Origin: an uncultured delta proteobacterium
GTDB lineage: Bacteria > Desulfobacterota > Binatia > Binatales > Binataceae
Reading direction: 5' to 3'
Assembly: GCA_963815255.1 (NCBI GenBank)
Contig: CAWFGH010000012.1
Coordinates: forward strand, 268,121-332,120
DNA length: 64,000 bases
The position numbers were made by a program, and so were the translations under genes. Below, piece after piece: positions 1-13,046 of the stretch. Position 1 is the stretch's first letter. Each line of letters opens with the position of its first letter. Under the pieces are notes generated by a model. The model saw only the letters and a list, made by a program, of their open reading frames with translations, did no database searches and was not told the origin of the DNA.

Positions 1-1392
1 CATCACGACCACGATCGGCAGTTGATGGCGAATCGCCGTATCCATCTCCATCCCGTTCCATCCAAATGCACCGTCCCCCGAGAGCACCACTACCGGCGCC
101 TCCGGCCGCGCGACCTTGGCGCCGATTCCGAACGGCACGCCGACGCCCATGCATCCATGCGGCCCCGCGTTGAGACTGCACCCGGCTTGGTAGATCGGAA
201 TCGACTGGCGCGCGAAGTTCAGAATCTCGTGGCCGTCGACGATCAGGATGGTGTCGCGCGAGATCAGGTCGCGGACCTCGCGGCACAGACGCAGCGGATG
301 GATCGGCACGGCGTCGGAATGGAGCAGCGGTGCCGAGCGCTCCTGGTTGGAGCGATGCTTGGCGCTGAGTTGCGCGACCCACGTGCTCTCGCGATGCGCC
401 TCGAAGCGGCCGTCGGCCTCCTCGGTCAACTGGCGCAGCACCAGCTTGGCGTCGCCGATGATCCCGACCTCGATGCCGCGGTTGTGGCCGATCTCGCGAC
501 CGTCGAGATTGACGCTGATGAAGCGTGCGTCGGGCGAAAAGCGCGGCGCGCGTAGAAACGAGAGCATCGAGTTCGCCCGCGCTCCCACCACCAGCACCAC
601 GTCGGCGTCGCGAAACGCCATCGAGCGCGCACCAGGAAACGAGCGCGGATGGTCCTCGGGAATCACGCCGCGGCCCTGCGGCGTGGTGTAAAACGGCAAC
701 CCGGTGCTGTCGATGAAGTCGCGCAGTTCGGCGGACGCGCCCGACCACAACACGCCGCTGCCGGTGACGACGATCGGGCGCTCGGCGCCGGCGAGCAACT
801 CGATCGCGCGTTCCACTTGCACAGGGTCGCCGGCAGGACGGCTGTCCACGCGGTAGTTGGCGGGGAACATCAGTTTTTCCTCGTCGACCTTGTGATTGAG
901 AATGTCGCCAGGGAGATCGAGGTAGACCGGGCCCTTCTTGGCGTCGAGCGCCTCACGAAACGCGACGCTGATGTACTCCGGGATGCGGCTCGCCATATCG
1001 ACTCGGTAGGCTGCCTTCACCACCGGCTTCATGATCGCGACCTGATCCATCTCCTGGAACGCGTCGAGCGTCGTCGCGCGCATCGGCGCCGAACCGCCAA
1101 TCGCGATTATCGGCGTGGCGTCGGCCCACGCGTTGGCGAGTCCCGTGAGCGCGTTGGCTGTACCCGGACCCGACGGTGTGATGCAGACGCCCGGCTTGCC
1201 GGTCACGCGCGCGTAGGCGTGCGCCATCATGGCCGCCGCCTGCTCGTGGCGCACGTAAATGCCCTTCATCCCAAGATCAAGACAGGCGCCCGCAGTGCCG
1301 CTGGTCGGACCGCCCATCATGAAAAAGATCGTGTCGACTTTTTCGTTGCTTAAGCAGCGTGCGATTATCTGCTCGCCTCTTATGATTGCCAT
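1..1392 (-). CDS. Thiamine-pyrophosphate-binding enzyme (2-hydroxyacyl-CoA lyase / oxalyl-CoA decarboxylase / AHAS-like); C-terminus runs off the window
   Basis: Manual translation from ATG at 1392 (GAGGAG upstream): MAIIRGEQIIARCL...RHEQAAAMMAHAYARVTGKPGVC...GPGTAN...FQEMDQ and the TPP motif GDGAFG...MEMDT. Absent from the ORF track because the stop lies outside the window. Confidence 0.9.
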   Translation of the reverse strand, partial: MAIIRGEQIIARCLSNEKVDTIFFMMGGPTSGTAGACLDLGMKGIYVRHEQAAAMMAHAYARVTGKPGVCITPSGPGTANALTGLANAWADATPIIAIGGSAPMRATTLDAFQEMDQVAIMKPVVKAAYRVDMASRIPEYISVAFREALDAKKGPVYLDLPGDILNHKVDEEKLMFPANYRVDSRPAGDPVQVERAIELLAGAERPIVVTGSGVLWSGASAELRDFIDSTGLPFYTTPQGRGVIPEDHPRSFPGARSMAFRDADVVLVVGARANSMLSFLRAPRFSPDARFISVNLDGREIGHNRGIEVGIIGDAKLVLRQLTEEADGRFEAHRESTWVAQLSAKHRSNQERSAPLLHSDAVPIHPLRLCREVRDLISRDTILIVDGHEILNFARQSIPIYQAGCSLNAGPHGCMGVGVPFGIGAKVARPEAPVVVLSGDGAFGWNGMEMDTAIRHQLPIVVVM

Positions 1393-10358: not shown

Positions 10359-10910
10359 ATGAAACGTGCACTCCTGGTCATCGACGTACAGAATGAGTAT
10401 TTCACCGGCAAAATGCCGGTCAGCTATCCGCCGGGCTCGCTCGACAACATCCTGAAAGCGATGGATTCGGCGCGCGCACACCATGTACCGGTGGTCGTGG
10501 TCCGTCATGAGGCAAAGGGCGATCGCGGGGTGTTCAAGGCCGGAACCGAGGAATGGAACCTGCACAAGGACGTCGCGGCCCGGCCCGCCGATTTGCTGGT
10601 CGACAAGAACCTGCCCTCGAGCTTCGCCGGCACCGACCTGGAGAAGTGGCTGCGCGAGAACCAGATCGACACCCTGACCGTGAGCGGGTACATGACGCAG
10701 ATGTGCTGCGACAGCACCGCGCGGGACGGGTTCCATCGCGGCTACAAGGTGGAATTTCTCTCCGACGCCACCGGCACGCTGACGGTCGGTAATAACTCGG
10801 GCAAGGTTGCCGACAAGGACCTGCACAATTCGGTGCTGGTCACGCAGGCCTCGATGTTCAGCAAAGTGATGGACACCGCCGACTGGATCAAAAAGCTTGA
10901 CGAGAAGTGA
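10359..10910 (+). CDS. Cysteine hydrolase (isochorismatase family)
   Basis: [13 protein letters not shown]...[21 protein letters not shown] catalytic motif. Confidence 0.9.
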
Positions 10911-11001: not shown

Positions 11002-11652
11002 TCAACCACCCTTGAGGCGGGCGTAGTGGCGATGCGCCTTCGCGCGGTTTCCACATGCGCTCATCGAGCACCAGCGCCGGGTGCCGTTCTTGCTCTCGTC
11101 CAGGAACAGCCACAGACACTTGCTGTTCGCGCACTCGCGCACCCGGGTCAGTTGCGGACCGGCCAGCAAATCGCCTGCCGACCATAACACCGGGGCCAGC
11201 AACGCCGACGCGGTCGCGCGCGATTTCCCCTCGATTCGCCAGCCGAAGGCGCCGCCGATACGCTGAAGGGCGCTCCGCGCGGGAGTCTCCTTCAATGCGC
11301 GATTAAGCTCGGACAGATCGCCGTCGGCCGGTGTGTTGCCGCTCGCGACCGCATGGAAGATGCGGTAGACCGTCTCCCGAAGCGCGATCGCGCCGCGAAA
11401 AATCGCCGCCGCCTCTGCGGGATGGCGGTCTGCCCAGGTCCCATTCGTCCCGTTTGTCCCGCTATCCGCGATTGCGCCGGCTAACACGCTGCCCGAGGAG
11501 GCGCACCACTTCACGAGATCCGGCAATCCGTGCAGGCTTTCGCTCGGTGTGCTGCCGCGCCACGCGAGCGTGTTCCCGAAATCGAGGCAGAGGTCGCGGC
11601 GGGGAGCCAAAACCAAAGCGCCCGCCCGCCCGATGCATTTAGAGGTCGTCAC
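11002..11652 (-). CDS. ABATE/CGNR zinc-finger protein (predicted regulator)
   Basis: LCLDFGNT N-terminus; C-terminal RECANSKCLWLFLDESKNGTRRWCSMSACGNRAKAHRH. Confidence 0.92.
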   Translation of the reverse strand: MTTSKCIGRAGALVLAPRRDLCLDFGNTLAWRGSTPSESLHGLPDLVKWCASSGSVLAGAIADSGTNGTNGTWADRHPAEAAAIFRGAIALRETVYRIFHAVASGNTPADGDLSELNRALKETPARSALQRIGGAFGWRIEGKSRATASALLAPVLWSAGDLLAGPQLTRVRECANSKCLWLFLDESKNGTRRWCSMSACGNRAKAHRHYARLKGG

Positions 11653-11667
11653 CCGGCCTTTACCATA

Positions 11668-11750
11668 CTAACCGCCATGACGGTTGACAATCGCCTGTCG
11701 ATGATCTATCTAACCACTGTACTGGTTGTTTCAACCAGCTAGCAAGTTAG
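11668..11750. promoter_or_regulatory. Three related palindromic boxes around a TTGACA promoter in the CGNR/VOC divergent region
   Basis: CTAACC-gccatgac-GGTTG (11668-11686), CTAACC-actgtact-GGTTG (11710-11728), inverted copy CAACC-agctagca-AGTTAG (11732-11750); TTGACA at 11684-11689. Confidence 0.65.
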
Positions 11751-11798
11751 AAGGCCGGGAGGCGAGCAGCGCTCCCGTCAAAAAAGGAGCACGAGGTT

Positions 11799-12176
11799 AT
11801 GATTCATCACGTCTCGATTGGGGTGAGCGACATTGGCAAAGCACGGCGGTTTTACGATGCGGCGCTGGCGCCCCTTGGCGCGAAATGCCTGAGCGAGGAC
11901 GCAAGCGCGCTCGGCTATGGCGGTAGCGATGGGCCGCGACTGTGGTTGCTGGCTGCCGGTACGAAGGTCCCGCGCGACATCGCGGGCCTGCACATCTGCT
12001 TCGAGGCCGGGCGGCGCGCCGCGGTGGACGCCTTTCATGCCGCCGCGGTCCATTCGGGTGGCCGCGACAACGGCAAGCCGGGGCTGCGTGCCGATTACGG
12101 CGAAAACTACTATGCCGCGTTCGTCACCGATCCGGACGGCAACCGGATCGAAGCGTACTGCGGCCGCAAAGAATAA
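11799..12176 (+). CDS. VOC / glyoxalase-bleomycin resistance family protein
   Basis: MIHHVSIGVSD...ARRFYDAAL, HICFEA...VDAFH, YYAAFVTDPDGNRIEA. Confidence 0.92.
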   Translation: MIHHVSIGVSDIGKARRFYDAALAPLGAKCLSEDASALGYGGSDGPRLWLLAAGTKVPRDIAGLHICFEAGRRAAVDAFHAAAVHSGGRDNGKPGLRADYGENYYAAFVTDPDGNRIEAYCGRKE

Positions 12177-12360: not shown

Positions 12361-12819
12361 ATGCTCGCGCAGAAGTCCAAATACGCGCTCAGAGCACTGC
12401 TTGTGCTGGCCAAGGAATATGGCCAGGGTCCAGTGCTGATTTCCGATATCGCCCATCGCGAGGCGCTCCCGCAAAAGTTTCTCGAGCTCATTTTGCTCGA
12501 ACTGCGCAACCACGGGATCCTCGGAAGCAAGAAGGGCAAGGGTGGCGGATACTTCCTCGCCCGGCGACCCGAGTTGGTGCACCTGGGGGAGGTTTTACGC
12601 GTGCTGGAGGGGCCTCTCGCGCCTTTACCATGCGTAAGCAAGACCGCCTACGTACGATGCGCCGAGTGCCGGGATGAACGCACTTGCGGCATCCGGATGG
12701 TCATGAAGGACGTCCGAGACGCGACCGCACGAATTCTCGACCAGACCAGCCTGGCCGACATTCTCAAACGCGTCGAGCTCGCCGTCGAGGGTAAGGAAGC
12801 GCTGAATTATGCGATCTGA
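12361..12819 (+). CDS. Rrf2-family transcriptional regulator (CymR/IscR-like) of the sulfate operon
   Basis: MLAQKSKYALRALL, PQKFLELILLELRNHG, SKKGKGGGYFLA, EGPLAPLPCVS...C.EC.DE..CGIR. Confidence 0.92.
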   Translation: MLAQKSKYALRALLVLAKEYGQGPVLISDIAHREALPQKFLELILLELRNHGILGSKKGKGGGYFLARRPELVHLGEVLRVLEGPLAPLPCVSKTAYVRCAECRDERTCGIRMVMKDVRDATARILDQTSLADILKRVELAVEGKEALNYAI

Positions 12820-12835
12820 ATTTTTTTGGCTGATT

Positions 12836-12856
12836 AGTCTACTAAGATAATCGATT
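12836..12856. promoter_or_regulatory. Second candidate Rrf2 operator
   Basis: AGTCTACTAAGATAATCGATT matches ATTCTAGTTAGTCGATAGACT (12337-12357) at 13 of 21 positions; AT-rich and directly upstream of the DUF2292 ATG. Confidence 0.45.
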
Positions 12857-12857
12857 T

Positions 12858-13046
12858 ATGGGACTAAAAGAGCAACGATCCGATCAGGCAAGAGCTGACA
12901 CCTCGAACGCCGATCTTGCCCGCGTGCTCGAGGAGATCGAGCGAGCAATCAGGACCGTCGCTTACGGTTCGGTCGAGGTCATCATCCAAAACTCTCGCGT
13001 GGTGCAGATAGAGCGTAAGGAAAAATTTCGCTTCAGCGAAAGTTGA
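12858..13046 (+). CDS. YezD/OscA family small protein (DUF2292)
   Basis: IERAIRTVAYGSVEVIIQNSRVVQIERKEKFRF signature; typical position upstream of sulfate uptake genes. Confidence 0.85.
   Translation: MGLKEQRSDQARADTSNADLARVLEEIERAIRTVAYGSVEVIIQNSRVVQIERKEKFRFSES

Follow-up and report, generated by a model that had tools for sequence, protein, structure and literature searches.

The 64-kb stretch of DNA analysed here (the window) carries two divergent genes, one for a protein of the ABATE/CGNR zinc-finger family and one for a protein of the VOC superfamily, separated by an intergenic gap of 146 bp (11653-11798). Three short inverted repeats, boxes A, B and C, lie in this gap (Table 1). A sequence-only reading of the DNA had described three boxes of the TAACC-N8-GGTTR type and a TTGACA hexamer, and re-reading of the sequence placed all of them at exactly the positions claimed. 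The flanking genes had been named as a CGNR regulator and a divergent VOC gene, and this was borne out by Pfam matches. All three boxes are imperfect, in that one half-site is TAACC and the other CAACC. The distance from box B to box C is 21-22 bp. A fourth GGTTA, located at 11794-11798 over the start codon of the VOC gene, is unconserved in relatives and was set aside as probably due to chance.

Table 1. Features of the CGNR-VOC region in the window (P_voc, predicted promoter of the VOC gene)
Feature	Position	Strand	Remarks
ABATE + zf-CGNR regulator gene	11002-11652	minus	216 aa, GTG start; Pfam match
TAGTAT, -10-like hexamer facing the regulator gene	11665-11670	minus	abuts box A; plus-strand reading ATACTA
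Box A	11668-11686	unstranded	CTAACC-GCCATGAC-GGTTG
TTGACA, predicted -35 hexamer of P_voc	11684-11689	plus	perfect consensus; overlaps right half of box A
TATCTA, likely -10 of P_voc	11707-11712	plus	17 nt downstream of TTGACA; runs into left half of box B
Box B	11710-11728	unstranded	CTAACC-ACTGTACT-GGTTG; 42 bp downstream of box A
Box C	11732-11750	unstranded	CAACC-AGCTAGCA-AGTTAG, reversed orientation; in VOC leader
Stem-loop CGGGAG...CTCCCG in VOC 5' leader	11756-11777	plus	between box C and Shine-Dalgarno sequence
Shine-Dalgarno sequence GGAG of VOC gene	11786-11789	plus	conserved block
VOC gene (glyoxalase / bleomycin-resistance / dioxygenase superfamily), proposed target	11799-12176	plus	125 aa; Pfam match

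Genomes of actinobacteria and of soil and plant-associated bacteria frequently encode ABATE/CGNR proteins. The regulator encoded in the window matched both Pfam models of the family: the ABATE domain (PF07336) at residues 20-166 with an E-value of 7.9e-21 and 75.5 bits against a cut-off of 24.4, and the zf-CGNR domain (PF11706) with an E-value of 7.4e-20 and 70.9 bits against a cut-off of 24. Its zinc ligands are C174, C179, C195 and C200, the last of which opens the CGNR motif at residues 200-203 (G201-N202-R203). An AlphaFold2 model of the protein (pLDDT 84.2, pTM 0.82) had only one significant match in PDB, 3H0N (Foldseek E-value 7.9e-6, TM 0.60/0.69; phmmer 9.6e-5), which is Jann_2411 of Jannaschia sp. 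CCS1. Jann_2411 was described as a dimer with a conserved basic face predicted to bind DNA, and its authors proposed a ligand-responsive regulator and named no DNA site (PMC2954205). A dimer of this kind would suit a palindromic site. The ABATE/CGNR family received its name in 2009, on the basis of a single structure from structural genomics (PMC2954205). That no well-established binding site is known for the family had been stated in the sequence-only reading, and in agreement with that we found in the searchable full-text literature no published operator, target gene, ligand or functional study of any CGNR protein; PDB holds no DNA complex of the family. A CGNR gene in a Bordetella pertussis transcriptome (PMC9976334) was rejected as a lead, as it sits by mod genes and nothing ties it to the present subfamily. 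The HT-SELEX compendium of Pseudomonas syringae contains no CGNR protein, and the GGTTATG motif reported there is that of PcaQ (PMC7532196).

The product of the VOC gene matched the Glyoxalase model of Pfam (PF00903; E-value 3.5e-9, 37.5 bits against a cut-off of 20.6). No VOC subfamily (glyoxalase I, Fos, extradiol dioxygenase etc.) could be assigned, the best NCBIfam models reaching 20-24 bits against cut-offs of 146-321. Of the VOC detoxification enzyme that had been proposed, the superfamily membership stands, whereas detoxification is a family-level guess, with no NCBIfam model above its cut-off. The leader of the VOC gene also contains the stem-loop listed in Table 1, a side feature outside the operator. 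In nine relatives 80% of its cells were paired (37-53% in slid controls) and three pairs had compensatory changes; RNAalifold also gave an alternative fold of the leader, in which GCUCC pairs with the Shine-Dalgarno sequence. Positions 11500-11950 had no match in Rfam at E <= 1.

The boxes are rare in their own surroundings. When up to one mismatch was allowed, TAACC-N8-GGTTR had nine strand-matches in the window, five of which are the three boxes, versus 1.49 +/- 1.28 in shuffled sequences; the maximum among the shuffles was five, and 0 of 100 reached nine. With a position weight matrix built from the sites of relatives, we scanned the 4.38-Mb assembly to which the window belongs. The three boxes ranked second to fourth genome-wide (scores 26.3, 25.6 and 20.4; next match 17.3), and the first rank was taken by a lone site within an ORF (putative acyl-CoA-synthetase-like). 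Neither the matrix scan nor a regular-expression scan of this assembly, which is about 80% complete, revealed a further clustered or plausibly promoter-located site. A wider regulon in this genome was provisionally rejected on these grounds. Its sole perfect site (C9:40352) sits within a long ORF; about 1.8 such sites would be expected by chance, as estimated from base composition.

To follow the boxes in other species, we scanned one genome per prokaryote species for relatives of the regulator and kept the best 80 of 271, with identities from 86% to 44%. They come from Binataceae, the lineage of the window, whose records frequently carry the label 'uncultured delta proteobacterium', from Alphaproteobacteria and from Bordetella, and include Stellaceae, Reyranella/Enhydrobacter and Acetobacteraceae. 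Of the 80 loci, 78 carry two to three copies of AAC(C/T)-N8-(A/G)GTT close to the CGNR gene, no farther than about 130 bp upstream, and elsewhere in the flanks of these loci, about 0.5 Mb altogether, the pattern had only eight matches. Of the remaining two loci, one lies at a contig end (L009) and the other is a paralogue whose upstream region has a single box (L015). A VOC gene in divergent position next to the regulator gene was likewise seen at 78 loci of the 80; two of these 78 matches are partial (L047, and L054, which is cut at a contig end). The sequence-only reading had named a lack of enrichment near CGNR homologues as the outcome that would speak against an operator, and the result was the opposite, with boxes at 78 of the best 80 of 271 homologues.

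The conservation extends to bases that were not set by the search pattern. An A follows GGTT (A+17) in 78/78 loci in both box A and box B, and a T precedes AACC (position 0) of box B in 67/78. The consensus over the 78 loci is TAAC(C/T)-N8-(G/A)GTTA for box B and cTTGTCAACC-N8-GGTTAG(T/A)AT for box A, with the TTGTC that precedes box A agreeing in 69 to 78 of 78 loci per position; the half-sites are invariant and the remaining spacer is unalignable. An alignment of the intergenic regions of 30 distinct Binataceae species gave the same picture. Its conserved blocks are AT(A/T)CTAACC-N8-GGTTGACA, which comprises box A and TTGACA, a 'cTA' 16-17 nt downstream, tcTAACCatc-N5-GGTTAg (box B), the Shine-Dalgarno sequence and the start codon, while the rest could not be aligned.

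Two details of the earlier description stood only in part. Box C, which had been counted in the operator array, is present in the window, but it is limited to the closest relatives of the window, that is, to 11 of the 30 Binataceae intergenic regions; in Reyranella-type genomes an extra box that overlaps box B at an 8-bp shift is found in place of box C. The distance between boxes A and B, read as four helical turns, is indeed 42 bp in the window, but it is 38 to 53 bp over the loci, so that cooperative phasing is unsupported. Taken together, the comparisons show that purifying selection on the boxes is strong, that they overlap conserved hexamers of the predicted promoters and that they travel with CGNR genes.

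The promoter hexamers were placed by consensus and by conservation. The TTGACA, fused with the right half of box A as GGTTGACA, is kept as GGTTGACAA, each position agreeing in 69 to 78 of 78 loci, and shows no variation among the aligned Binataceae. The 'cTA' of the likely -10 keeps its fixed distance of 16-17 nt from TTGACA in all 30 species, and the sequence in between is variable. TATCTA was not called by a consensus promoter scanner because its position 6 is not T. With the -35 and -10 placed in this way, transcription from P_voc would be expected to start at about 11718-11721, within box B. It had been claimed that box A overlaps the -35 and box B the -10/+1 region of the VOC promoter, and for the predicted promoter this holds in the 30 Binataceae species, the overlap being defined by the conserved TTGACA and by the 'cTA' with which the -10 starts, both placed by consensus hexamers. 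On the other side of box A, the flank GGT-TAG(T/A)AT is conserved (A+17 in 78/78, A+20 in 60/78 and T+21 in 49/78 loci), and the -10-like hexamer facing the regulator gene is TAGAAT in most Binataceae. As TAGTAT ends 12 nt before the GTG, the mRNA of the regulator would have a very short leader or be leaderless. No -35 was found upstream of TAGTAT at the canonical distance for the regulator's own promoter. The regulator promoter proposed by the scanner, TTGTCA-17-TATGGT, was rejected, since its -10 is unconserved and the conserved element is the TAG(T/A)AT that abuts box A. An operator of the MerR type, in which a palindrome lies inside an over-long spacer of 19-20 bp, was rejected as well: P_voc has a spacer of 16-17 bp, with the boxes on either side of it. 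A protein bound to box A would be expected to occupy both divergent promoters.

The palindromes could instead act in the RNA, by forming hairpins in the leader of the VOC transcript that serve attenuation, stability or riboswitch-like control. Boxes B and C can jointly fold into a hairpin (z = -1.88), and the separate stem-loop in the leader has some compensatory changes. However, the position of box A, upstream of the -35, keeps it out of the VOC RNA. The half-sites neither vary nor covary, and the N8 centre lacks self-complementarity. Moreover, box C is missing from most relatives, no Rfam match was found, and in most alphaproteobacterial loci the Shine-Dalgarno sequence comes directly after box B. 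We regard an RNA role of the boxes as extremely improbable.

A genome-wide scan for the site had been proposed in the sequence-only reading. In 12 genomes, perfect TAACY-N8-RGTTA sites numbered one to eight per genome, which in 10 of the 12 did not exceed the count of a reversed-pattern control. The gap between the CGNR and VOC genes holds one of these few sites in 9 of the 12 genomes, and in three of them it is the only one. In two genomes (G061 and G068) there is just one CGNR gene and just one perfect site, side by side. In Reyranella-type genomes, boxes were additionally found away from the regulator gene: the layout of box A, GGTTGACA and box B recurs upstream of an unlinked GNAT (FR47-like) gene (L164; partially in L159), and a single box lies upstream of a DUF4440/SnoaL-like gene in three genomes (L160, L161 and L162). 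These unlinked boxed promoters are evidence that would favour action in trans and a small regulon.

Paralogues of the regulator allowed the site to be separated from the VOC gene. Binataceae paralogues of about 53% identity, divergent from a gene for a DUF1302 secreted protein, have AACT-N8-GGTT boxes and a TTGTCA (L015/L108, L110 and L119). Paralogues of about 33% identity beside an alpha/beta hydrolase or MOSC gene (L109, L116, L117, L120, L121, and L155 of an alphaproteobacterium) have one to two copies of (G)TAACC-N19-GGTTA(C) placed on a TTGACA. A homologue of 29% identity with a sigma-54 activator as neighbour (L085) has TAACC-N19-GGTTA, and another (L158) has N18 spacing. An independent sample, the CGNR homologues in a plasmid collection, provided further cases of both kinds. 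A VOC-linked orthologue of Burkholderia arboris is accompanied by TAACC-N8-GGTTA and cTTGTCAACC-N8-GGTTAGATA, and a Mesorhizobium homologue beside an EamA transporter gene by TAACC-N8-GGTTA. N19 boxes were found in Paraburkholderia phymatum, Cupriavidus, Ralstonia and Pantoea, two TAACC-N18-GGTTA on a plasmid of Chondrinema (Bacteroidota), and two TTACC-N18-GGTAA, with a variant half-site, in Deinococcus (Deinococcota). Two Streptomyces homologues, one Agrobacterium homologue and a subgroup with an RHWCSS finger (L106 and L154) have other repeats or none; these exceptions indicate that the TAACC rule is widespread, not universal. The candidate operator thus co-occurred with the regulator gene whatever the neighbour was, be it DUF1302, EamA, alpha/beta hydrolase, MOSC or the sigma-54 activator.

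The two spacings were also evident when perfect TAACC-Nx-GGTTA sites were counted in the 380 nt upstream of the regulator genes. The 94 orthologue-type loci gave 46 sites at N8, seven at N0 (overlapping boxes) and no more than two at any other spacing. For the 26 other CGNR loci, 11 sites were at N19, one at N18 and one at N8, and 120 coding-region controls of 530 nt had no perfect site at any spacing. The window belongs to the short-spacing class: TAACC-N8-GGTTA equals TAAC-N10-GTTA and is about one helical turn shorter than the N18/19 sites. These counts bear on the view that the boxes are chance or purely promoter-derived similarities with no regulatory role. The bare AACC-N8-GGTT pattern is genome-wide no commoner than other spacings (40 matches versus 27-42), as that view would have it, but none of the 100 shuffles of the window reached its nine matches, the half-sites are invariant in 78 loci and the coding controls are empty, so that we take its probability to be close to negligible.

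The part of the protein that would read the half-sites is conserved to the same degree in both spacing classes. The four cysteines and the sequence RRWCSM..CGNR.K are invariant in 27 homologues, in the N8 and N19 groups alike, which fits with a common half-site. As the spacings of 8 bp and 18-19 bp differ by about one helical turn, the half-sites would stay on the same face of the DNA. We consider it somewhat more probable than the contrary that throughout the family the zf-CGNR finger recognises one specific 5-bp sequence, the half-site T(A/T)ACC, in two dimer geometries (8 versus 18-19 bp), and that altered fingers such as RHWCSS read other repeats.

These observations are best explained, in our opinion, if the boxes are docking sites of a dimeric CGNR repressor which closes the two divergent promoters and which a ligand of the ABATE domain releases; the probability that we give to this reading is roughly 0.8. 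The regulator would be a homodimer whose two treble-clef zinc fingers each read a TAACC half-site of TAACC-N8-GGTTA. On box A, such a dimer would cover the -35 of P_voc and the stretch directly upstream of the TAGTAT that faces the regulator gene, and dimers on box B, and in the genus of the window also on box C, would cover the -10/+1 region of the VOC promoter and the early leader. Occupancy of boxes B and C may keep the VOC transcript from being initiated or halt it early in elongation. Both divergent transcripts would stay repressed until a small molecule binds to the ABATE domain and frees the protein from the DNA. We infer physical binding, repression over activation, the stoichiometry of the dimer, ligand control and the positions of the transcription starts. 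In the genome of the window the regulon would consist of the CGNR-VOC gene pair alone. The cognate operator array that had been postulated to control the VOC gene and the regulator itself appears likely on this account, supported as it is by conservation, rarity and the paralogues. The partner genes, which encode VOC, GNAT, DUF4440, alpha/beta hydrolase, MOSC, EamA and MFS proteins, suggest that small-molecule modification or export is what is being controlled.

The same protein could bind the same boxes as an activator or dual regulator, such that in its ligand-bound form it recruits RNA polymerase from box A, and box B serves for fine-tuning. Class II activators use a position upstream of and abutting the -35, which is where box A lies. 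In addition, the -10 of P_voc is weak, as is typical of activator-dependent promoters, and the regulator's own promoter has no recognisable -35. On the other hand, the -35 of P_voc is a perfect TTGACA that needs no help, box B, whose conservation equals that of box A, sits over the -10/+1 region, a location expected of a repressor, and the boxes of the N19 paralogues likewise lie on a TTGACA and on a -10. Activation thus appears unlikely to us, and repression remains the preferred mode of action.

Finally, the boxes might be bound by a different, unlinked transcription factor, with the CGNR protein being a co-regulated passenger or a factor that binds RNA or protein. Look-alike palindromes of the AACT-N8-AGTT type adjoin TetR-family genes (L165 and L166), which indicates that CGNR genes are not alone in having the bare pattern and that it can arise as the operator of another family, and the unlinked boxed promoters in Reyranella could be explained by any trans-acting factor. 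Nevertheless, the CGNR gene is the sole common element of the VOC, DUF1302, alpha/beta hydrolase, MOSC, EamA, MFS and sigma-54-activator loci that have TAACC-type repeats, and these repeats span Binataceae, Pseudomonadota and Bacteroidota, with the TTACC variant in Deinococcota. The gene for an Rrf2 protein downstream (12361-12819) was rejected as a source of the binder, as it is kept as a neighbour in only 1 of 80 loci, and no other regulator is consistently nearby. The genomes with one CGNR gene and one perfect site adjacent to it (G061 and G068) also argue for the CGNR protein. Binding by another factor is less likely still than activation, and we retain the CGNR repressor as the probable occupant of the boxes.

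The locus and its relatives provide a candidate operator for an uncharacterised family, TAACC-N8-GGTTA, that can be read from sequence and is conserved in several phyla. It comes with a fixed candidate target, the VOC gene, and in some genomes with what may be a small regulon of VOC, GNAT and DUF4440 genes. Cultured carriers are available in Reyranella soli NBRC 108950, Enhydrobacter aerosaccus ATCC 27094 and Paraburkholderia phymatum STM815, so that what CGNR zinc fingers bind and sense becomes directly testable. If the finger indeed reads the half-site throughout the family, the targets of thousands of uncharacterised ABATE/CGNR regulators would be predictable from sequence alone, with small enzymes and exporters as the predicted targets (VOC, GNAT, DUF4440, alpha/beta hydrolase, MOSC, EamA and MFS).

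As a regulatory design the proposed divergent pair of repressor and operator is commonplace; what is undescribed in the searchable literature is the reader domain with its site. The closest structural relative, Jann_2411 (3H0N), shares with the regulator of the window the architecture of an ABATE domain and a zinc finger, including the Cys4 treble-clef fold of the latter. It differs in that it is only about 20% identical and has CQNR instead of CGNR, and in that for the window regulator a site and a target can be read from comparative data. Ros/MucR proteins are C2H2-like zinc-finger regulators whose sites are AT-rich and not strictly palindromic and which silence genes globally in the manner of H-NS; they lack an ABATE sensor. 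They resemble the CGNR regulator in using a zinc-coordinated DNA-binding domain (in the CGNR protein a predicted one) instead of a helix-turn-helix, but the folds are unrelated and Pfam reveals no sequence relationship. In its layout, the locus is most readily compared with TetR/tetA of Tn10, where two tandem palindromic operators, each a compact 15-bp tetO, lie between the divergent regulator and target genes. As there, a divergent regulator and a single target are separated by at least two palindromic operators (candidate ones at the present locus) that lie over both promoters (predicted ones here), the regulon is local, and autorepression with ligand-induced release would be expected, as we propose here. 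Membership of the regulator in the TetR family is excluded by Pfam. In contrast to TetR, which has an N-terminal helix-turn-helix, the CGNR protein has a C-terminal treble-clef zinc finger and a sensor with the ABATE fold, and in place of the 15-bp tetO its candidate site consists of 5-bp half-sites 8 bp apart, or 18-19 bp apart in the paralogues.

The predicted operator of the window type, TAACC-N8-GGTTA, was also found in Reyranella-type genomes upstream of genes unlinked to the ABATE/zf-CGNR regulator gene (the CGNR gene): one encoding an FR47-like GNAT acetyltransferase, preceded by two of the boxes, and one encoding a DUF4440/SnoaL-like protein, preceded by a single box. This distribution suggests a candidate three-gene regulon in these genomes. 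The GNAT gene is divergent from a putative Ada/AraC-like gene.

Features in the window and in the compared loci (L-numbers: loci compared, from other genomes or the same one; C12: a contig of the same assembly)
Feature	Location	Strand	Remark
Isochorismatase-family hydrolase gene	window 10359-10910	+	convergent with the CGNR gene
Stem-loop CGGGAG...CUCCCG	window 11756-11777	+	VOC 5' leader
Shine-Dalgarno sequence of the VOC gene	window 11786-11789	+	
Rrf2-family regulator gene, then 62-aa DUF2292 gene	window 12361-13046	+	
FR47-like GNAT acetyltransferase gene	L164:780-910, L159:780-910		upstream: box A, GGTTGACA, box B
DUF4440/SnoaL-like gene	L160, L161, L162, ~position 900-960		one TAACC-N8-GGTTA upstream
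AACT-N8-AGTT / AACT-N8-GGTT palindromes	L165:~905-925; L166:~870-890		upstream of putative TetR-family genes
Repeat ACACCATCTAAAC.TATATGCTGGTGT, TATGCTGGTGTCG twice	L106:~1000-1040; L154, same region		upstream of RHWCSS-finger gene
N19 class members	L109, L116, L117, L120, L121, L155, L173, L174, L175, L177		repeats upstream of CGNR genes
Second zf-CGNR-like group	L082 (C12:10459-10575 in the same assembly, beyond the window); L128-L143		

Naive pattern scans call for caution, as look-alike palindromes stand upstream of two genes that, judging from their N-termini, look like TetR-family regulators. Three Reyranella-type genomes share one such palindrome, TAACTTACTGGTCAGTTA, letter for letter, and these palindromes are probably the putative TetR-family regulators' own operators.

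The leader of the divergent VOC gene contains a stem-loop that is kept in the nine closest relatives, with 80% of cells paired compared with 37-53% in slid controls, and with compensatory changes at three pairs. Its 3' arm can alternatively pair, through GCUCC, with the Shine-Dalgarno sequence GGAGC. The element could be a translational switch, or just a stabilising 5' hairpin. As for the other neighbours, the isochorismatase-family gene, 88-98% identical in the 10 closest Binataceae loci, was missing in the loci compared from Alphaproteobacteria and Bordetella, and thus lies outside the conserved module. The Rrf2-DUF2292 pair, found again in only one related locus (L005), is without relation to the boxes.

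A further protein group, present in many Binataceae, matches zf-CGNR weakly and carries the finger ...KNQKYCSHRCANK. In front of each of its genes lies a conserved segment some 60 nt long, …ctggcaatatcg…tgtatggccaga…ttcatcct…aagag…tttga….

Among the CGNR proteins themselves, one subgroup (L106 and L154) has the finger RHWCSS in place of RRWCSM, part of the stretch invariant in 27 homologues. Its genes are preceded by a different conserved repeat, common to one Binataceae and one Reyranella genome; in the latter (L154), an alpha/beta hydrolase gene adjoins the regulator gene. This pairing of an altered finger with a different repeat hints that protein and DNA co-vary. CGNR paralogues of about 30-33% identity, whose usual partner is an alpha/beta hydrolase gene, are preceded by one or two copies of (G)TAACC-N19-GGTTA(C). 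Compared with the window boxes, the half-site in this class is identical, and the spacing is longer by approximately one helical turn.
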